This document shows positions 29,137 through 40,196 of a stretch of 64,000 bases of DNA, piece after piece; within the stretch, counting starts at the first letter, position 1, and the number at the start of each line of letters is the position of its first letter. The translations under genes were made by a program, and so were the position numbers. Where the stretch lies: NCBI GenBank assembly GCA_002070505.1, contig MWDJ01000014.1, positions 4,371 to 68,370 of the forward strand, given 5' to 3'. The notes under the pieces were generated by a model, which did no database searches, was not told the DNA's origin, and worked only from the letters and a program-made list of their open reading frames with translations. This DNA is from Bacteroidetes bacterium ADurb.Bin145 (GTDB lineage: Bacteria; Bacteroidota; Bacteroidia; Bacteroidales; VadinHA17).

Positions 29137-29715
29137 TTAAGAACTTTTCCTGTCATAAACAAATGATGTTCTTGTCTCTGTTCCGGTAGCAGTTCTGAGA
29201 ACAGACGTCCTTGACAGAGTATTTTTATTTATGAGCGTCCATTCCTCAGTGGTTTTGGTTTCACCGTTCCCTATTGTTTTGGTAACTATTCTGAGAGTCT
29301 TACCATCGTCTGACCATCTGGCATATGAAGTGCTGGGAATTCCAGGTTGTCCATCTCTGCCAACTGCAAAATTTACAGATGGCTTAAAGTCCAGAGTATA
29401 TTTCAGTTCTCTGACAGTCGGATTCCCATCCTGACTTATGGTTGTTGTTGAAACTTTAAGAAGGTTAGCTTCCTGCGTAACAACAAGATCGCCATTTGTA
29501 CCAGCATTTCTGCCGGTTAATCCTCCTGTACCACCTACAGGAGCAGTACCCGGACTACTTTTTGACACATTCAAAACCCAATTACCTGAAAAATTAGTTT
29601 TCCCCTCCTGAGCTTTTAGCATAACCGGCATTATAAAAGCCAGAATAACTGTTAAAGCAACAAGCTTCAGAAGAATTCTATTGTTATTTTGGTATATTTT
29701 TAAATTTCTTCTCAT
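29137..29715 (-). CDS. Secreted hypothetical protein (beta-rich, Thr/Gly-rich)
   Basis: Signal peptide ending MLKAQE. No motif recognised. Confidence 0.55.
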   Translation of the reverse strand: MRRNLKIYQNNNRILLKLVALTVILAFIMPVMLKAQEGKTNFSGNWVLNVSKSSPGTAPVGGTGGLTGRNAGTNGDLVVTQEANLLKVSTTTISQDGNPTVRELKYTLDFKPSVNFAVGRDGQPGIPSTSYARWSDDGKTLRIVTKTIGNGETKTTEEWTLINKNTLSRTSVLRTATGTETRTSFVYDRKSS

Positions 29716-29818
29716 ACTAATTTTATTTTTAACGAATAAATTGATAATTAACCACTTGTGAATAATGATATACCTTTAAGATTTATTTACTCTGTTTTTC
29801 GCAACGTATCATTTAATC

Positions 29819-30901
29819 TCAAGATTGACGTATAAATTTTTGCACTCTGGTGTTCATACCTACTTCGGAAGCATAGACATTACCATTTCGATCTACTGCT
29901 ATTCCATGTATCTCACCAAATTCTCCGGGCAGATCTCCCTGAGTGAATGTCCAGATAAGCAGCACTCTTCCCTGCGGATTAAACTTAACAATGAGGTTAT
30001 CATTAGAGCGGGGCAGGTTAGCATATTCAGCTTTTGTTCTCAGGGGTCCGTAACCGCATGCCCAGACATTATCCTCACTGTCGATCCACAGGTCAAACGG
30101 GACAATTATGTCAGGCCATTGATCGATAAACTTACCATTCTGATCAAAGATCTGAATCCTCGTATTACCACGGTCAGCTACATAAAGCAGCCCCTTTGAG
30201 TCAGAAACAATAGCATGAGGACATACGAACTCACCTGGTCCTTTACCTTCCTTGCCCCATGCTTTTATAAATTTACCCTGAGGGTCAAAATGCACTATCC
30301 GGAAATTAACTTCACCGTCAGCAACAAAAATATCACCAGATGGCACTACTAAGACATCATTTGGATCTCCAAAGTGAGTCTCATCAGTACCTCGCTCATT
30401 ATATTTACCCAGAACCATGAGCACTTTGCCCTCAGGAGAGCATTTGTACACAACACCAAGACGCCAGGTTACAACCCATACGTTACCTTCATGATCGACC
30501 TTGATCTGGTGGATCCCGGGATCAGGCATTGAAAATGTGAGGTCAACGGGTCCGTTTTCTACGGAAGTAACTACGGGACCCTGAGTTCCAAAAGCCTTGA
30601 TAAATTTACCATCAGGAGTATATTCATGTACAAGCGGCAGAGAACGGGTGATGAACCAGATATTACCTTGTGCGTCGATGTCGACACCGGGTATTCCGCC
30701 GCTCCAGACAATATCTTCAGGCTTTTGCGGCCACCAGGGATCGTCTGCAAAAAAAGTCACTGATCCCCAATTTTCAGGTTTCTTCTCACCCGGAGATCTC
30801 AGGTTACATCCTCCAAGAGCCGGGAGGATAGTTAATCCTAGTCCCGTGGCTGCTGTCCGGGACAAAAATTTCCGTCTGTTCAATTTACTAGATATTCCCA
30901 T
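29819..30901 (-). CDS. Tat-signal NHL-repeat six-bladed beta-propeller protein (peptidyl-alpha-hydroxyglycine lyase-like)
   Basis: Twin-arginine leader NRRKFLSRTAATGLGL. Repeated G..F..P..I.VD..GN.(Y/W)V.D NHL-type blades. Confidence 0.7.
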   Translation of the reverse strand: MGISSKLNRRKFLSRTAATGLGLTILPALGGCNLRSPGEKKPENWGSVTFFADDPWWPQKPEDIVWSGGIPGVDIDAQGNIWFITRSLPLVHEYTPDGKFIKAFGTQGPVVTSVENGPVDLTFSMPDPGIHQIKVDHEGNVWVVTWRLGVVYKCSPEGKVLMVLGKYNERGTDETHFGDPNDVLVVPSGDIFVADGEVNFRIVHFDPQGKFIKAWGKEGKGPGEFVCPHAIVSDSKGLLYVADRGNTRIQIFDQNGKFIDQWPDIIVPFDLWIDSEDNVWACGYGPLRTKAEYANLPRSNDNLIVKFNPQGRVLLIWTFTQGDLPGEFGEIHGIAVDRNGNVYASEVGMNTRVQKFIRQS

Positions 30902-31406: not shown

Positions 31407-31645
<239 letters not shown>

Positions 31646-32191
31646 CTCTATCCTCCCTGGCTTCAGTAAAGGAGAACTTATATAAATGAACTACGGCAGT
31701 TTAGTCCCGATGCTTCGGGACTGGTTTAAGCCACTCACCCATCTCTCCCTCTATCCTCCCTGGCTTCAGTAAAGGAGAACTTATATAAATGAACTACGGC
31801 AGTTTAGTCCCGATGCTTCGGGACTGGTTTAAGCCACTCACCCATCTCTCCCTCTATCCTCCCTGGCTTCAGTAAAGGAGAACTTATATAAATGAACTAC
31901 GGCAGTTTAGTCCCGATGCTTCGGGACTGGTTTAAGCCACTCACCCATCTCTCCCTCTATCCTCCCTGGCTTCAGTAAAGGAGAACTTATATAAATGAAC
32001 TACGGCAGTTTAGTCCCGATGCTTCGGGACTGGTTTAAGCCACTCACCCATCTCTCCCTCTATCCTCCCTGGCTTCAGTAAAGAAGAACTTATATAAATG
32101 AACTACGGCAGTTTAGTCCCGATCCATCGGGAATGGTTTAAGCCACCCTCGCCCTCCGTAGCTTCAGCGCAGGAGGGTCACCCATCTCTCC
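31646..32191 (-). repeat. Tandem array of four identical 103-bp units plus one 134-bp variant, each with a rearranged 5' fragment of tRNA-Ser(GCU) and a leader hairpin
   Basis: ctcacccatctctcc recurs at 31631, 31734, 31837, 31940 and 32043, an exact 103-nt period. Unit boundaries are 31646/31749/31852/31955/32058/32191. Each unit holds tRNA nt 1-27 and 35-47, but nt 28-34 are replaced by the hairpin TCCCGAAGCATCGGGA, and the T arm and 3' acceptor strand are missing. Confidence 0.9.
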
Positions 32192-32210
32192 ATCACTTTC
32201 CTGAGCGCGA

Positions 32211-32241
32211 CAAAAATAGGAAAACGGATACTAAGTGCAAA
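32211..32241 (-). promoter_or_regulatory. Bacteroidetes-type sigma-A promoter (TTTG-N19-TAnnTTTG) in front of the array
   Basis: Minus strand reads TTTG (32241-32238), 19 nt, then TATTTTTG (32218-32211). The first tRNA-like fragment starts 19 nt downstream of the -7 element. Confidence 0.65.
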
Positions 32242-32253
32242 AAAAATGTGAAC

Positions 32254-34539
32254 TTATTTCACCCCCTTTAAAACATCAATCAATAGCCTGAAGTTCTCCT
32301 GTGATTCCTCGTCGAAGTTTGATAATTTCAGATTCCCCGATGTGACCTCCGTAAGAAATCTTGAGAAGAGGAAACCCCTCGCGATCTTCTTGTCCCTAAC
32401 ATATTCTGAATTAGCTACTGTGATCCCCTCACGGGTCTTAAGTATATGGTTCTTGAAATCGAGAGTCGATAAGAGATCCTCAGCATTGTAAAACGTCTCA
32501 GGCATCCTTATTATAAGGTCCCTCCCGCTGTTGTCAGTCCTGAAGATCGTATCCTTCAGCAAACCAGCCACCTGGTTCTCCTTGTCATTTTCAAAAAGAA
32601 GAACGGCGAACTCGAGTCCCCATCCCATAAGAACATTGCAGAGTAGCGGAATGGATGAGACATTTGTTGATGGTATCACACTGATCTTTGTGGTCGAACC
32701 CATCAGATGAATTATGGCGTTAAGCAGGTAATAGGATCCGGTATCGTTAACTATCAGGTTGAATTTCTTCGATGAGAAACCCTCACCGGCTACCGGGTTC
32801 CCCAGTATGCTCTGAAGAGGTGTCAGAGTATCGGGCGATGCAGCAGAAAGACGCAGAGGATCAAGGATCCTTGTCGTACTTCTCAGGCTGTCGAGATCAT
32901 CCCGCTGAACTGCAAGGATGCGGTGCAACTTATTTATTTCAACCAGATGGGGTGAGTGCGTTGTATAGATTACCTGTATCTTGTCCTTGATATCTTCAAA
33001 AACTTTAAGCACGTCTTCCTGAGCCCTTGCATGCAGACTAACTCCTGGTTCATCAATAAGAAGCACCATATTCCTGTTGTTGAGATTTGCTGCTGCCTTA
33101 AGCTCCATATAAAATGACAGGAACCATCTTACTCCCCTGCTCCTCTGCTTAGGATAAAGCCGTTCTCCCTCATCTTTTATCCAAAATTCCAGGTAAGGTT
33201 TTCCGGCCTTATCACCACAGGAAGCATTGTAATGATCAAGCTCAAATTGAATATGTATCTTGTTGTTCCTCCCTATCGACTGCTGCCAGAAATCCTGGAA
33301 ATTTGTAGTCAGGGTGTAATTAAGGTTCTCTATTTTTTGTTTCAATATACGGCTCGACGGCTGCTGGAAAAATGAATAATCGAGCGCTGCTATAGTAAGA
33401 AAATTACGGGCTGCTTTGTACCCTTCAACCTTATCATTCCCGGAAATGATATCATCCATATCGATGCGATTGGGCAGCAGGCTGCCAAAGTCTTCAAATA
33501 CTTCAAACACAGGGCAGTATTCAAAATACTTCTTCCCAAGTATCTCGCTGTTATACTGTGATTTATATGACTGAATTATTTCATTGACCTTGGCATTGGC
33601 ATCTCTTTCATTATAACCATCCATTATGTAGCCTGAAAGTGCTATATGCCTGTCAAGATCAGCTTTTGTAAGATCTCTGTCCCTTCTGGTGATCCTGTAA
33701 TCATTCAGGACATTCTTCCAGGCCAGGTCATCTTCATCATCCTGTCTCATTAGGAAGGTCATCTGCTGATGCCTTTCCTCAAGTTTTAAGGATAGTTCTC
33801 CAAGGTGGTTTTCAAGTGCTGTGCATTTATCAAGAAGAGTTTTCCAGGTTTCACCCGTTTTCTTCATCAGTTGTTTAGCCGAGAGCTCTTTGCTGAGCTT
33901 CTCCTTTTGCTTCAGGATCTCATTAAGCTCGACAATAAGAGCAGGATCTTCAGCAATCAAAGGAACTTCCTCAGCCGGGTTTTTCTTGAACAGCGATTTG
34001 ATCCCTTTTTTCTTCGGATCCAGGTTCGGTAATTTTGTCCTGATCTGAGCCTCTTTGAGATTTACATTCTCCAAAGCTTTTTCGAGACTCGAGATATTTT
34101 CCAGCTCCTCTTCCATTTTCACAGTTACATCCCCCAGATAGATCCGCCAGGCATCTTCAAGTGAATCAAGATACTGGCTGATAGCTCCACTCACCTTAAG
34201 AACAGATGAAAGATCCGGGAGCCAGCTCCTCGTAAGCTCTATATGAGAGGTTCCCGAAAGCAGCTCTTTTAATTCGGTTCCGGGATTATCAGTTATCTTA
34301 AGCAGCCATCCTTCCGGGACACTGAAGCGGCAGCTTACATCCGGAAGTGAGAGATCGCTCCGCAGCACATCTTCAGATATTGTCTCGGTATAAAATACCC
34401 TTAAGGCTTCCAGGATGGAAGTCTTGCCTGACTCATTCTGCCCTATAAGACAGGTTATGTTATCAGGAGACAGGGACTGCCATCCCGTATCGATTATCGA
34501 CCGGAAATTTCTTATCCTGAAAGCAGTGAGTTTCATCAT
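32254..34539 (-). CDS. ABC/OLD-like (AAA_15/21-type) ATPase with a coiled-coil insertion and a TOPRIM-like C-terminal domain
   Basis: FRIRNFRSI...LIGQNESGKTSILEAL (Walker A). A ~170-aa heptad-rich insert. RGVRWFLSFYMEL (signature-like). MVLLIDEPGVSLH (Walker B/D-loop). TTHSPHLV (H-loop). The last 171 aa start with NLIVNDTGS. Confidence 0.75.
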   Translation of the reverse strand: MMKLTAFRIRNFRSIIDTGWQSLSPDNITCLIGQNESGKTSILEALRVFYTETISEDVLRSDLSLPDVSCRFSVPEGWLLKITDNPGTELKELLSGTSHIELTRSWLPDLSSVLKVSGAISQYLDSLEDAWRIYLGDVTVKMEEELENISSLEKALENVNLKEAQIRTKLPNLDPKKKGIKSLFKKNPAEEVPLIAEDPALIVELNEILKQKEKLSKELSAKQLMKKTGETWKTLLDKCTALENHLGELSLKLEERHQQMTFLMRQDDEDDLAWKNVLNDYRITRRDRDLTKADLDRHIALSGYIMDGYNERDANAKVNEIIQSYKSQYNSEILGKKYFEYCPVFEVFEDFGSLLPNRIDMDDIISGNDKVEGYKAARNFLTIAALDYSFFQQPSSRILKQKIENLNYTLTTNFQDFWQQSIGRNNKIHIQFELDHYNASCGDKAGKPYLEFWIKDEGERLYPKQRSRGVRWFLSFYMELKAAANLNNRNMVLLIDEPGVSLHARAQEDVLKVFEDIKDKIQVIYTTHSPHLVEINKLHRILAVQRDDLDSLRSTTRILDPLRLSAASPDTLTPLQSILGNPVAGEGFSSKKFNLIVNDTGSYYLLNAIIHLMGSTTKISVIPSTNVSSIPLLCNVLMGWGLEFAVLLFENDKENQVAGLLKDTIFRTDNSGRDLIIRMPETFYNAEDLLSTLDFKNHILKTREGITVANSEYVRDKKIARGFLFSRFLTEVTSGNLKLSNFDEESQENFRLLIDVLKGVK

Positions 34540-34551
34540 ACCCGCATGCAG

Positions 34552-35367
34552 TTATATCTGAAAACCAAATATCAGGACATCGTCGATCTGCTGGCAGTTA
34601 CCCTTCCACTGGTAAAATGTCTCTTTGAGGAATGATTTCTGCCTTGACATTGATAATCCTGACATCGATTCTATTAGCTTTTTTAATTGTTTCTGTTTGA
34701 ATTTCTTGTCGGATATTTCGCCAAACTGGTCTGAAAACCCATCGGAATACAGATAAAATGTATCGCCAGGCATTATATCCAGGACCTGGTTTGTAAAAGG
34801 CTGTTCCCTGAGAGGAGCCACGCCGATTGTCATTTTATCAGGTTTGAACTCCGAAAGCACCCCCTGTCTCATCCTTATTAATGGCCTGTTAGCCCCCGAG
34901 AACTGCAGCTTCCCGTTTGCCGGATCGACTATACACAGACCAATGTCAATACTGTCTTTTGTTTCAGCTTTTTCACCTGTCTGGTGAAGCGCCTTCATGA
35001 CTTTCTCCCTCATGAGGTTAAGTATCCTGTTGGCTTTCGGATCGCTTTTAAGCTGCAGTATGTCATTAAGGAAGCTTATACCGAGAATGCTTAGAAGAGC
35101 TCCCGGAACACCATGCCCTGTGCAATCTCCGGCAGCAACGCATATGTACTGATTACGGCTGAAAACATAGTAAAAATCACCGCTTACAATATCCCTCGGC
35201 AGGAACAGAACAAAATAATCCTTGAACAAACCCTTCATAATTTCAGGTTCCGGAAGGAGGGCTTTCTGGATCATCCTGGCATACTGAAGACTTGCCAGAT
35301 GATCCTCAATCTTCTGATTCTGAACCAGATTGACAAGGTCAAGGTTATTATGATTCCTATACACCAT
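34552..35367 (-). CDS. Stand-alone PP2C-family (SpoIIE/RsbU-type) serine/threonine phosphatase
   Basis: ARMIQKALLP, VSGDFYYV, GDCTGHGVPGALLS, YLYSDGFSDQ and IDDVLIFGF, the metal-binding Asp motifs of SpoIIE-type PP2C. The ATG at 35367 is preferred over the TTG at 35370. The stop lies 12 nt before the ATPase start. Confidence 0.85.
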   Translation of the reverse strand: MVYRNHNNLDLVNLVQNQKIEDHLASLQYARMIQKALLPEPEIMKGLFKDYFVLFLPRDIVSGDFYYVFSRNQYICVAAGDCTGHGVPGALLSILGISFLNDILQLKSDPKANRILNLMREKVMKALHQTGEKAETKDSIDIGLCIVDPANGKLQFSGANRPLIRMRQGVLSEFKPDKMTIGVAPLREQPFTNQVLDIMPGDTFYLYSDGFSDQFGEISDKKFKQKQLKKLIESMSGLSMSRQKSFLKETFYQWKGNCQQIDDVLIFGFQI

Positions 35368-35438
35368 CAACTAAACAATGTGTGTAAAAGCTAAAGATAC
35401 ATTAATTTTGAAATAAAAAAATACCCCGATATTAACCA

Positions 35439-36863
35439 TCATAGCTGGGACCTGTTCATAAGTACTACATTTTCAACATGATGAGTATGTGGAAACATAT
35501 CCACAGGCTGCACTCTGCCAACATAATACCTGCCTGAAAGCAGCTGCAGATCACGCGCCTGTGTAGCAGGATTACAGCTGATATAAACTATCCTCGAAGG
35601 AAGTAATGACAGTATCTTTTCAACAACATCCTGATGCATGCCTGCCCTGGGAGGATCAGTAATTATTACATCCGGCCGGCCGTTCATTTCAACAAATCTC
35701 TCCGATAACACATCCTTTATATCACCTGAAAAGAAACTTGTATTTGTGATATTATTGATCCGTGAATTTTCAACAGCATCCCTGACTGCTTCTTCGATGT
35801 ACTCTATCCCGATCACCTTTCGTGACATGGATGCAACAAAATTCGCTATAGTTCCTGTACCTGTGTAGAGGTCATATACAATCTCATTCCCGGTCAGTTC
35901 TGCGAAATTCCTGGCTGTTCTGTACAGCTGAACAGCCTGTGCGGTATTCGTCTGGCTGAAAGATTTCGGTCCTATTCTGAACTTAAGTCCATCCATTGTT
36001 TCAGTCAGATAATCTTCTCCTTTATATAAGACAGGGGTCTGGTCAGCGAGGGAATCGTTTCTTTTATTGTTAATAATATAGAACAATGAAGTGATCTGCG
36101 GGAATTCTGAAGCAAGGAAATCAAGCAGATCTTCTCTCCTCTCCTTTTCATCGAGGAAGAAGACCACGATCACCATAAGCTGCCCGTCAAGTGTATTCCG
36201 TATTATAAGATTACGGAGAAAACCGCTTTGCTGCCTGAGATTGAAGAACTGAAGTCCTTTCCTGTGTGCGTATCGCCTTACGGCGTTCCTTATCGAATCG
36301 GATGGTTCAGGCTGCAAATGACATTCAAGAATATCCATCACCTTATCAAATTTTCCGGGTATGTGGAAACCGAGCGCATCATTGTTCCCGGTCTCATTTC
36401 CGGAATTCATCTCTTCATTTGTAAGCCACCGTTTTTCCGAAAAAGTGAATTCAAGCTTATTCCTGTAACCGAATATCCGGGAAGATCCTATGATCGGATC
36501 TATCGAAGGAAGTTCCAGTCTGCCTATTCTTTCAAGGCTGTCTTTTACCTGTTTCTCTTTGAACTGAAGCTGGAGATGATATGGAAGATGCTGCCATTTG
36601 CAGCCTCCGCACTCCCCGAAATGCCTGCACAAAGGTTTTACCCTGTCTTTCGAATATTCGTGAAACCTGACGACACTGCCTTCAAGATAATTCTTCCTTT
36701 TCTTCCTGACCCTCACATCTACGACATCACCAGGGATAAGCATCGGTATAAAAAGAACCTTATTATCCACCCTGGCCAGGGCATTGCCTTCTGCGCCAAT
36801 ATCTGTTATAGTTATCTTTTCAAGCAACTGCAAATCCTTCTTCCTGCTCACGTTCTGAATCAT
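35439..36863 (-). CDS. rlmD: 23S rRNA (uracil-C5)-methyltransferase RlmD/RumA family
   Basis: N-terminal TRAM-like domain, Fe-S Cys cluster CRHFGECGGCKWQH, SAM motif DLYTGTGTI, DPPRAG, and a catalytic Cys in YISCNP. Confidence 0.9.
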   Translation of the reverse strand: MIQNVSRKKDLQLLEKITITDIGAEGNALARVDNKVLFIPMLIPGDVVDVRVRKKRKNYLEGSVVRFHEYSKDRVKPLCRHFGECGGCKWQHLPYHLQLQFKEKQVKDSLERIGRLELPSIDPIIGSSRIFGYRNKLEFTFSEKRWLTNEEMNSGNETGNNDALGFHIPGKFDKVMDILECHLQPEPSDSIRNAVRRYAHRKGLQFFNLRQQSGFLRNLIIRNTLDGQLMVIVVFFLDEKERREDLLDFLASEFPQITSLFYIINNKRNDSLADQTPVLYKGEDYLTETMDGLKFRIGPKSFSQTNTAQAVQLYRTARNFAELTGNEIVYDLYTGTGTIANFVASMSRKVIGIEYIEEAVRDAVENSRINNITNTSFFSGDIKDVLSERFVEMNGRPDVIITDPPRAGMHQDVVEKILSLLPSRIVYISCNPATQARDLQLLSGRYYVGRVQPVDMFPHTHHVENVVLMNRSQL

Positions 36864-38249: not shown

Positions 38250-40196
38250 ATGGTTTCGGTAAAGAACATATGCGTTTCATTTGGCAGCTTCGATCTGCTG
38301 AATGATATTTCTTTCCTGATAAATGATCAGGACCGGATAGGCCTTGCCGGGAAGAACGGATCAGGCAAGTCGACTCTATTAAGGATCATTGCCGGTATCC
38401 AGGCTCCCTCTTCAGGTCAGGTTGATATGTCGAAAGAAATAACAATTGGCTATCTGCCTCAGCAGATGAAAATCGATGATTCGACGACAATCATTAATGA
38501 AGTACTGACCTCATTCGCAGAAATAACAGGGCTCTCTGAGGAAATTGAAAGATGCAGCACTGAAATCTCAGGCAGGAAGGATTATTCATCGGATGAATAT
38601 CTTAAATTATGCGATCATCTTACTATTATTGAAGAAAGATACAGGATCCTCGGAGGCAACAACTATATTGCTGAAGCGGAGAAGGCCCTCGTGGGTCTTG
38701 GCTTTGAAAGGAGTGATTTCAACAAGCTGACGAAAGAACTTAGCGGCGGCTGGAGGATGAGGATTGAACTGGCAAAGATACTCCTGAAAAAACCTTCCCT
38801 GTTTCTTCTTGACGAACCGACAAATCACCTTGATATTGAATCGATCCAGTGGCTTGAGAGTTTTCTCACAACATATAACGGGGCTGTAGTTCTGGTTTCT
38901 CATGACAGGGCATTCCTAGATAATGTGACTACACGGACAATTGAGATATCAATGGGCAGAATTTATGACTATAAAGTATCCTGGTCAAAATTCACAGAAC
39001 TAAGGAAAGAGAGGAGGGAACAACAGATAGCTGCTTTCAGGAATCAGCAGAAGCTGATAGATGATACGGAGAAGTTCATTGAAAGATTCAGGTATAAACC
39101 CACAAAAGCCATACAGGTCCAGTCGAAGATCAAAATGCTTAATAAAATTGAAAGGATAGAGGTTGATGATCTGGATAGCAGTTCAATTAATCTCAGATTT
39201 CCACCGGCTCCGCGATCCGGCACCACAGTCATTGAAGCTGAGGGCCTTTCAAAAAGTTACGGGGCTCATGAGGTATTAAGATCAATCGATTTCAAGCTCC
39301 ACCGCGGTGAGAAAGTCGCATTTGTCGGTCGTAATGGAGAAGGGAAAACAACTCTGGCAAAAATAATTATAGGGGAACTTGGTTACGAAGGCTCCCTGAA
39401 GAAAGGGCATAATGTATGTACCGGATATTTCGCACAGAACCAGGACGAACTGCTTAATGAAGACCGTACTGTATTTGAAACTATTGATTACATAGCCAAA
39501 GGAGAGATCAGAACAAAAATGAGAGATATCCTTGGAGCCTTCCTTTTCCAGGGAGAGGATATCGATAAAAAAGTAAAGGTCCTTTCCGGAGGTGAACGCT
39601 CAAGACTGTCACTTGTCAGGCTCCTTCTCGAACCACATAACCTGCTTGTTCTTGATGAGCCGACCAACCATCTCGACATGAGGTCCAAGGATATCCTGAA
39701 ACAGGCACTTAATAAATATGATGGCACATTAATTGTGGTTTCTCACGACAGGGATTTCATTGATGGTCTTGTAGAAAAGGTGTATGAGTTCAGGAACAAG
39801 ACTATAAAGGAAAATATAGGAGGGATCTATGATTTCCTGAGAAAGAAGAAAATAGACAGTCTGAGGGAGATTGAGAGGAAGGAAATATCACTCAAATCGC
39901 CTTCCCCGGGTAATGTCAATTCATCTAATAAACAAAGGTATCTTGAAAAGAAAGAATATGACCGTAACCTGAGGAGGCTCAGGAAGCGGCTTGAAGATTC
40001 GGAAAAGGAAATAGAAAAGATCGAGAAGGAGCTGTCGCTCCTCGATGCATTGCTGAGTTCTTCGGTCCATTCAGCGGATGATACACACGAGATCTATGAA
40101 AGATATGAGGAGCTCAAGGCAAAGCATAATGAAGAAATGATACGCTGGGAACAATATACGAACGATGTGGAAGTTTTCATTCAGAATAGTGATTAA
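38250..40196 (+). CDS. ABC-F family ATPase (two ABC domains, no TMD, C-terminal coiled coil)
   Basis: Two Walker A motifs (GKNGSGKST, GRNGEGKTT), two signatures (LSGGWRMR, LSGGERSR), an inter-domain linker and a Lys/Glu-rich tail. Confidence 0.9.
   Translation: MVSVKNICVSFGSFDLLNDISFLINDQDRIGLAGKNGSGKSTLLRIIAGIQAPSSGQVDMSKEITIGYLPQQMKIDDSTTIINEVLTSFAEITGLSEEIERCSTEISGRKDYSSDEYLKLCDHLTIIEERYRILGGNNYIAEAEKALVGLGFERSDFNKLTKELSGGWRMRIELAKILLKKPSLFLLDEPTNHLDIESIQWLESFLTTYNGAVVLVSHDRAFLDNVTTRTIEISMGRIYDYKVSWSKFTELRKERREQQIAAFRNQQKLIDDTEKFIERFRYKPTKAIQVQSKIKMLNKIERIEVDDLDSSSINLRFPPAPRSGTTVIEAEGLSKSYGAHEVLRSIDFKLHRGEKVAFVGRNGEGKTTLAKIIIGELGYEGSLKKGHNVCTGYFAQNQDELLNEDRTVFETIDYIAKGEIRTKMRDILGAFLFQGEDIDKKVKVLSGGERSRLSLVRLLLEPHNLLVLDEPTNHLDMRSKDILKQALNKYDGTLIVVSHDRDFIDGLVEKVYEFRNKTIKENIGGIYDFLRKKKIDSLREIERKEISLKSPSPGNVNSSNKQRYLEKKEYDRNLRRLRKRLEDSEKEIEKIEKELSLLDALLSSSVHSADDTHEIYERYEELKAKHNEEMIRWEQYTNDVEVFIQNSD

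Follow-up and report, generated by a model that had tools for sequence, protein, structure and literature searches.

ATPase-nucleases of the OLD family are central to anti-phage systems, namely Gabija, retron Eco8, PARIS and the Class 1 OLD proteins. In Gabija, GajA (a Class 2 OLD protein) is accompanied by the UvrD/PcrA-like helicase GajB; in PARIS, the ABC ATPase AriA is encoded beside AriB, a separate small effector enzyme of the DUF4435/Toprim type; in Septu and in retrons, PtuA is found with the HNH protein PtuB. Class 1 OLD proteins, exemplified by Old of P2 and by the OLD protein of Thermus scotoductus (structure 6p74), carry an ABC head, an insert within this head and, at the C terminus, a Toprim domain in one polypeptide and are defined as single genes (PMC10568477). 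In Sulfolobales, Cran1 and the OLD ATPases of clade U11 represent a clade of the OLD family that has been inherited vertically; it is indispensable to the cell cycle and apparently plays no antiviral part (PMC12796447). The subject of the present analysis is a pair of genes from Bacteroidetes bacterium ADurb.Bin145, located in a stretch of 64,000 nt (contig MWDJ01000014.1, positions 4,371 to 68,370; hereafter, the window), which encode a SpoIIE/RsbU-type PP2C Ser/Thr phosphatase and an OLD-family ATPase whose Toprim-fold tail has a degenerate active site. The literature searched contains no description of a PP2C + OLD/ABC-ATPase system; PP2C is mentioned in a multi-gene candidate in the preprint of Payne et al., whose supplements have no PP2C or SpoIIE entry.

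An OLD-family ATPase with a long coiled-coil insert

An initial annotation of this DNA, made from the sequence alone, had described two adjacent minus-strand genes with a 12-nt gap, a layout that is confirmed at 32254-34539 and 34552-35367. The PP2C open reading frame (ORF) spans 34552-35370 on the minus strand and starts with a TTG directly followed by an ATG at 35367; counted from this ATG, the gene, identified from its ORF and its Pfam SpoIIE match, occupies 34552..35367 and encodes 271 aa, the length of nearly all PP2C homologues. Its stop codon is separated by 12 nt (34540..34551, minus) from the start of the ATPase gene, in an operon-like coupling. The latter (32254..34539, minus, stop codon included) encodes a protein of 761 aa that Pfam, AlphaFold2 and Foldseek assign to OLD-family ABC ATPases with a Toprim-fold tail.

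The head of the ATPase is divided into two lobes. The N-terminal one (residues 1-118, 34186..34539, minus), delimited from motifs, alignment and the AlphaFold2 model, contains the Walker A motif GQNESGKTS (K39), and the C-terminal one (residues ~341-585, 32785..33519, minus), recognized from its invariant columns, contains a signature-like motif (QRSRGVRWFLSF), the Walker B motif LLIDEPGVSLH and the H-loop TTHSPH. The Walker A (K39), Walker B and H-loop motifs quoted in the initial annotation are indeed found, together with the signature-like QRSRGVRWF. Both Walker motifs are near-invariant across ~160 ATPase homologues, the H-loop is near-invariant as well, and R466, S467, G469, W472, D496, E497, H503, T527 and H528 are invariant columns of the alignment. 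A coiled-coil insert (residues ~119-340, 33520..34185, minus), defined from AlphaFold2 secondary structure and alignment, separates the two lobes; it is predicted to comprise helices at 119-169, 199-263 and 271-327 and a Lys-rich disordered loop at 170-198 (model pLDDT 85.7, pTM 0.74), and it is far longer than the insert of 6p74 or GajA.

Homologues retrieved from 1.84 billion representative proteins and aligned as A1 fall into three tiers: a single cluster whose identity exceeds 50%, a set at 37-44% identity with lengths of ~775 aa, and many proteins of ~600 aa that lack residues ~120-340. The coiled-coil insert is thus missing from these short homologues, which have no PP2C partner. The C-terminal 170 residues constitute a conserved domain with the family consensus NNVxLEE ... 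PATG ... GWGLxFxVxxDDDxxGR ... GIEDxF in A1. Alignment A2, made of the short tier, has E442, E443, D493 and E531 as invariant residues; the match of its profile to 6p74 (1.7e-11) begins at Walker B and takes in the Toprim Glu (LEE/VEG) as well as the DxD (vvDDD/VVHDED). The corresponding Toprim-fold domain of the window protein (residues ~586-761, 32257..32784, minus) was delimited from the alignments, the profile alignment to 6p74 and the fold match.

The best full-length Foldseek matches of the ATPase model are GajA (8u7i_A, 2.7e-11) and the Thermus OLD protein 6p74 (4.7e-11), followed by PtuA, SMC and Rad50 heads; 6p74 is also the best sequence match among solved structures. The Pfam matches are AAA_15 (2.5e-31) and AAA_21 (3.1e-17). 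With N-terminal ABC ATPase motifs, a helical insert in the head and a C-terminal Toprim fold, and given the alignment of the Toprim region to 6p74 and the full-length fold matches to GajA and Thermus OLD, the window ATPase belongs to the OLD family of ATPase-Toprim proteins, its coiled-coil insert being long. A housekeeping RecF, RecN or SbcC protein, which the initial annotation had put forward as an objection to its own proposal, can be discarded, as these families give only short N-terminal P-loop matches far under the cut-off and the full-length fold is OLD/GajA-like. The likeness to the sensor ATPases GajA, PtuA and AriA, also put forward initially, is borne out by sequence and fold matches. 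The view that the protein is a bare sensor in need of a separate nuclease is not, since its own Toprim fold at residues ~590-761 had been overlooked.

A stand-alone PP2C phosphatase

The PP2C has a helical linker of ~60 aa at its N terminus, and the catalytic domain comes after it. It matches Pfam SpoIIE (1.3e-19, 71.3 bits versus a cut-off of 25) and carries all the metal-binding motifs (SGDFY, DCTGHG, SDG and DD); among 84 ATPase-linked partner PP2Cs, conservation reaches at least 98% at D64, D81, G84-H85-G86, D209-G210 and D262-D263. With this fold and these conserved metal-binding Asp motifs, the protein belongs to the PPM/PP2C phosphatases of SpoIIE-RsbU type, and Pfam and motif conservation agree with its initial description as a stand-alone enzyme with intact Asp motifs and no sensor domain. 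The nearest solved structure is the PP2C domain of SiaA (6k4e, 6.2e-29), and the catalytic domain and N-terminal linker helix are the same as in the SiaA, RsbU and SpoIIE phosphatases. Unlike these phosphatases, the window PP2C lacks a sensor domain and has an OLD-type ATPase as conserved neighbour. As noticed initially, no kinase or STAS partner is encoded nearby: eleven ORFs of the flanks, assessed with Pfam or via their syntenic homologues, include no kinase, STAS or SiaC protein, and tblastn yields no SiaC homologue in the whole window.

Conservation of the PP2C-ATPase pair

The neighbourhood of ATPase homologues was compared in two pattern-selected samples of up to 80 loci each. The genome sample, 80 loci obtained by scanning one genome per GTDB species with A1, ranges from 97% to 42% ATPase identity; its loci all come from Bacteroidia and every genome is a metagenome-assembled genome. 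The metagenome scan was seeded with the intact-Toprim tier, and only loci with room upstream were counted. A PP2C gene is located directly upstream on the same strand in all 79 genome loci with readable upstream sequence (L001-L003 counted); the partner PP2Cs have 263-282 aa and are separated from the ATPase gene by a gap of mostly 5-15 nt or by a small overlap. In the metagenome sample, a PP2C neighbour was found in 17 of the 20 loci encoding the long form, i.e. with the coiled-coil insert (the exceptions being L131, L135 and L160), and in none of the 42 loci encoding the short form (~600 aa, intact Toprim). In a neighbour-joining tree based on columns outside the insert, the PP2C-linked ATPases constitute one clade, and L131 and L135 branch just outside.

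The pair was found in at least five flanking contexts. In one of them, it is included in the order ABC-F, (LIP), rlmD, pair and tRNA-Ser; in another one, it follows ABC-F without rlmD; at 43% identity, the order is Ank, a 1100-aa Reg_prop/Y_Y_Y/SpoIIE sensor phosphatase, PP2C, ATPase, Peptidase_C26, a SiaC-family protein, tsaD and TamB; and there are at least two other arrangements. Synteny down to 42% identity and over several unrelated flanking contexts supports the view that the PP2C and the ATPase constitute a conserved functional pair. The initial annotation had made its proposal depend on the synteny of ATPase homologues with PP2C genes: the pairing holds in the PP2C-linked relatives and is absent only in distant short homologues.

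It could be argued that the two genes are functionally unrelated and kept adjacent by lineage-wide synteny only, as most of the loci sampled belong to a single syntenic lineage in which everything is conserved. Nevertheless, adjacency, orientation and the spacer of ~10 nt persist where all other neighbours change, including in the metagenome loci, the presence of the PP2C tracks that of the coiled-coil insert, and the divergences of the two proteins are correlated (r=0.92), so that a mere neighbourhood seems very improbable.

Alternatively, the PP2C might act in a partner switch of the Sia/Rsb type, its SiaC/STAS substrate and kinase being encoded elsewhere and the ATPase being a downstream target or an accessory. 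The closeness to the SiaA PP2C domain is consistent with this proposal, and so is the 43%-identity tier, where the sensor PP2C precedes the pair and a SiaC-family gene (PF09345, 4.5e-31) is found ~1 kb downstream. However, the NCBIfam SiaA match (1e-48) covers the PP2C domain only and reaches 166 bits versus an equivalog cut-off of 700, and no SiaB or SiaC is adjacent to the window PP2C. SiaC is confined to one lineage-specific context, beside tsaD, and the lack of SiaC in the window and of kinase and STAS in the flanking ORFs checked extends, for the latter two, to the other flanking contexts. The strict adjacency of PP2C and ATPase in the different contexts suggests that the primary partner is the ATPase, and a Sia/Rsb-type switch is considered improbable.

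In the 43%-identity relatives L072, L075-L078 and L080-L083 (e.g. L077:1834-10810), the stop of the sensor phosphatase gene overlaps the start of the small PP2C gene, and the gene of the SiaC-family phosphoprotein beside tsaD is highly conserved (78-93% identical). The co-occurrence of the sensor phosphatase and SiaC could hint at a shared phospho-signalling network in this context.

Loss of the Toprim catalytic residues

Three regions of the Toprim domain differ between the window protein and its relatives: IVND is found instead of LEE/VED, LLFENDKEN instead of DDDxxGR and AEDLL instead of GIEDxF. The catalytic Glu and DxD of the two-metal site of OLD proteins are thus lacking in the window protein. 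Across the species of the window clade, the former Toprim sites vary freely (FEN, FDN, FGN, FRN, YNN, FSQ). As these residues are replaced and drifting while the ATPase motifs stay invariant, the nuclease site of the window-clade ATPases is, judging from these alignments, almost certainly dead.

Other members of the PP2C-linked branch are in different states. An intact Toprim (VED, DDD, ED) is kept in L074, L079, L139, L144, L146, L147, L151-153, L157 and L162, a partly degenerate one is found in L150, L154, L155, L159, L161 and L163, and the domain is fully degenerate in the window clade and in the 43%-identity group. The presence of the three states inside one PP2C-linked clade indicates that the PP2C link arose with or after the insert and before the decay of the Toprim. 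The distribution also indicates that the acidic residues decayed at least twice within this branch, once in the ancestor of the window clade.

Relation to named systems

The window ATPase resembles Class 1 OLD proteins by its domain order, but its insert has grown to a coiled coil of ~220 aa and its Toprim has lost the Glu and DxD. Furthermore, in contrast to Class 1 proteins, its lineage has a conserved partner gene and it is not a stand-alone gene. GajA is the top full-length fold match and several PADLOC GajA profiles match the ATPase; however, no GajB/UvrD-PcrA-like helicase is found beside the window pair or in its relatives, and its nuclease site is almost certainly dead. PARIS, like the window pair, places an ABC ATPase beside a separate small effector enzyme, and the AriA profile gives the best PADLOC match (3.5e-32), although it is a general AAA_15-like model. 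Here, the partner is a PP2C (Pfam SpoIIE only) and not a DUF4435/Toprim protein, the ATPase has a degenerate Toprim of its own, and the pair is chromosomally fixed whereas PARIS is typically carried by mobile elements. Septu and retron PtuAB differ by their HNH protein, as no PtuB neighbour is found, and the NCBIfam PtuA score is 35 bits versus a cut-off of 500. Cran1 and clade U11, which can be likened to the window lineage by description, are taxonomically homogeneous and vertically inherited, but they are archaeal, keep a potent nickase and have no PP2C partner (PMC12796447).

In PADLOC, 126 overlapping ABC-ATPase profiles (AriA, Old, GajA, PtuA, AbiLi and others) match the ATPase without pointing to a specific system, and the PP2C has zero matches; NCBIfam equivalog cut-offs are all missed by both proteins. 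TerY-P associates a vWA protein (TerY) with a PP2C and a Ser/Thr kinase. No vWA or kinase Pfam domain is found in the flanking ORFs checked, and the PP2C is without PADLOC match, the presence of TerY-P models in PADLOC 2.0.0 being unconfirmed. No named defence system fits, given these generic matches of the ATPase, the lack of match of the PP2C and the missed cut-offs. These results agree with the initial annotation, which had claimed that a PP2C partner is absent from known ATPase systems and had left to PADLOC the question of an already named system: no system with such a partner is described in the literature searched, and no specific one was matched. The partner genes of Gabija, PARIS and Septu are not those of the pair, Class 1 OLD proteins have none, and the catalytic residues of an active OLD nuclease are lost. 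Within the OLD family, the pair can be classified most suitably as a new variant or as a candidate new class.

Inheritance of the pair

The order rlmD, PP2C, ATPase, tRNA-Ser(GCT) is kept across the lineage. In the window, rlmD, which encodes the 23S rRNA U1939 methyltransferase (Pfam TRAM and tRNA_U5-meth_tr; synteny), is the upstream neighbour of the pair (35439..36863, minus) and lies outside the module; tRNA-Ser(GCT) (ARAGORN and Rfam) is the downstream neighbour on the same strand (31558..31645, minus). The tRNA gene is located 56-400 nt past the ATPase gene, on the same strand, in ~50 related loci. The identity of ATPases to that of the window rises and falls with that of RlmD (r=0.86, with means of 71.6% and 70.1%, respectively), of the conserved ABC-F protein encoded at 38250-40196 (r=0.93) and of the PP2C (r=0.92). 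The evolution of the pair is as slow as that of the housekeeping genes around it, and the pair co-diverges with rlmD and ABC-F. When loci were picked by rlmD homology (73-83% identity), independently of the pair, the pair followed rlmD in 6/6 cases. Searches of plasmid and phage collections gave only partial matches of at most 33% identity and no relative above this value.

The initial annotation had presented the pair as wedged between rlmD and a tRNA gene in a typical accessory insertion context. This has to be abandoned, as the rlmD and tRNA-Ser neighbours are conserved with the pair, which co-diverges with its neighbours and has no close plasmid or phage relatives, and the variable region starts past the tRNA gene; an accessory insertion at the tRNA gene is ruled out. 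Conserved order, co-divergence, lack of close plasmid or phage relatives and merely generic PADLOC matches in the flanks run contrary to what usually marks mobile defence systems. Lineage-wide synteny, co-divergence with neighbours, the loci sampled from the rlmD side and the lack of close plasmid or phage relatives together argue for a two-gene operon that is fixed in the chromosome and passed on vertically in Bacteroidales and related Bacteroidia; taken jointly with the role proposed below, this reading has about even chances of being correct.

The short relatives with an intact Toprim, the only ones that look mobile, occupy variable contexts: 5-6 of them have a Mod-like gene on one side and a Res-like gene on the other, both of type III restriction-modification type, and further ones are near integrase or HsdS-like genes. 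Distant relatives are found on plasmids of many phyla. In L084-L092 and similar loci (L084:742-2676, L085:2000-4477), short intact-Toprim homologues are located between DNA methylase-like genes and genes encoding large Res-like helicases, labels that derive from sequence motifs only. Embedding inside restriction-modification genes has been used elsewhere for nominating defence genes.

According to a rival proposal, the pair is a new anti-phage abortive-infection system, in which the ATPase would sense a phage protein or DNA structure and release or activate the PP2C against essential host or phage phosphoproteins, the PP2C having replaced the Toprim as effector before the system was fixed. The closest characterized relatives, by PADLOC profiles (AriA, Old, GajA, PtuA) and by fold (GajA, OLD), are all defence proteins, in addition to the association of short relatives with restriction-modification-type genes, integrases and plasmids. 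In PARIS, an effector is reportedly held and then released by an ABC ATPase, which offers a precedent, and phosphatase-containing defence modules are known, such as KKP (PMC11341870). However, neither mobility nor defence-island context nor presence/absence polymorphism was seen in the loci sampled, and the PP2C has no PADLOC match. Furthermore, the pair diverges as slowly as rlmD and ABC-F, whereas immune sensors are expected to turn over and diversify rapidly. An abortive-infection system thus fits the ancestry of the family but clashes with the inheritance pattern, and appears rather unlikely, although less so than a Sia/Rsb-type switch. As regards the candidate undescribed defence-type system proposed initially, the conserved pair is real and matches no named system, but it is resident and vertically inherited, and it has no defence-island context.

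Origin and proposed mode of action

The comparison indicates the following history of the pair. The ancestors were short proteins of the ATPase-Toprim type whose nuclease site was intact and whose genes lay in variable restriction-modification, integrase or plasmid contexts. One branch gained the coiled-coil insert and then the PP2C partner, after which the acidic residues of the Toprim decayed and the pair settled beside housekeeping genes.

As a rule, the activation of RsbU/SpoIIE-type PP2Cs depends on another protein or domain, which exerts its effect via the N-terminal linker. In the present case, the ATPase dimer might be an ATP-driven sensor or scaffold on which the sensor-less PP2C would dock, most plausibly by contact of its linker helix with the coiled coil, and the binding or hydrolysis of ATP, or the binding of a ligand by the ATPase, would gate the phosphatase. 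Since the nuclease site would be gone, protein dephosphorylation, and not DNA cleavage, would be the sole catalytic output left in the lineage. A domesticated, non-mobile role is favoured by the inheritance pattern; that the pair plays such a role, with a PP2C gated by the ATPase and dephosphorylation as the likely catalytic output, is a proposal drawn from comparative data that stands at even chances. The pair could be at the service of resident immunity, or it could act in stress, chromosome or cell-cycle signalling.

Several points weigh against this proposal. Vertical inheritance is compatible with an immune role, and no opposing kinase is encoded nearby among the flanking ORFs checked. 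The long-form locus L160 is syntenic with the PP2C-bearing L147 and thus corresponds to a loss of the PP2C. In the PP2C-linked relatives with an intact Toprim, the nuclease may be the output and the PP2C its regulator. Finally, the neighbour-joining tree of the ATPases is without support values.

Surroundings of the pair

In the window, the tRNA-Ser gene is 608 nt away from the ATPase gene. The arrangement is otherwise the usual one, and the extra distance is due to 5-6 near-identical tandem copies of a 103-nt unit; this array (31618..32249, strand not assigned) lies outside the module, between the ATPase gene and the tRNA gene and directly upstream of the latter. Each unit comprises the 5' acceptor strand and D arm of the tRNA followed by a GTCCCGAAGCATCGGGAC hairpin where the anticodon stem would be. 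Shorter duplications of the same 28-nt tRNA 5' end, with periods of 73, 82 and 95 nt, occur in several related species, and array-type repeats just past the ATPase gene are also found in L028, L027, L010, L002/L003, L004, L039, L049 and L051. Many short-read contigs end at this tRNA-Ser repeat spot.

A terminator-like hairpin of 9 bp with 7 G-C pairs, followed by a T-run, is located just 3' of the tRNA gene (31529..31550, minus; hairpin scan) and is the sole strong one from rlmD to that point. A sigma-70 promoter scan gave only background-level matches, which are uninformative as this consensus differs from Bacteroidota promoters.

The gene content just past tRNA-Ser differs among close relatives, so that the 3' side of the tRNA gene, and not the pair, looks like a variable spot. 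In the window, this region (29137-30901) encodes two proteins, one of the NHL/beta-propeller type and one of 192 aa that has no Pfam match, and in other loci (L164-L169) it encodes a DDE transposase, Peptidase_M28 or CYTH protein.

On the flanks, PADLOC gave only a generic methyltransferase match for RlmD ('mad2', 2.4e-18) and an ABC-domain match for the ABC-F protein ('mad3', 4e-50). A MADS system was rejected, these being judged, from domain content and conserved synteny, domain-level cross-matches of housekeeping genes; such cross-matches could yield false MADS calls in automated defence annotation.

Biological significance

The PP2C-coupled coiled-coil OLD proteins may be a new OLD class, in which an immune-type ATPase sensor would have switched from cleaving DNA to dephosphorylating proteins and would have become part of a fixed core pair of Bacteroidales, acting as a resident immune sensor or as a Cran1-like regulator of the chromosome or cell cycle; this wider interpretation is put forward tentatively, as one that would more probably have to be revised than kept. 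No bacterial OLD clade that is vertically inherited, devoid of its nuclease site and locked to a PP2C was found described in the literature searched. If the interpretation is true, the metagenome intermediates that have both a PP2C and an intact Toprim would document a stepwise hand-over of the effector function, and the succession of short proteins with an intact Toprim, long proteins with PP2C and an intact Toprim, and long proteins with PP2C and a dead Toprim would provide a natural series for a change of sensor output. Sensor-less PP2Cs are frequent in Bacteroidota and have largely lacked an explanation; they would gain a candidate activating partner, and the pair would be a bacterial counterpart of the archaeal Cran1, i.e. 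another case of OLD proteins recruited to cellular functions.

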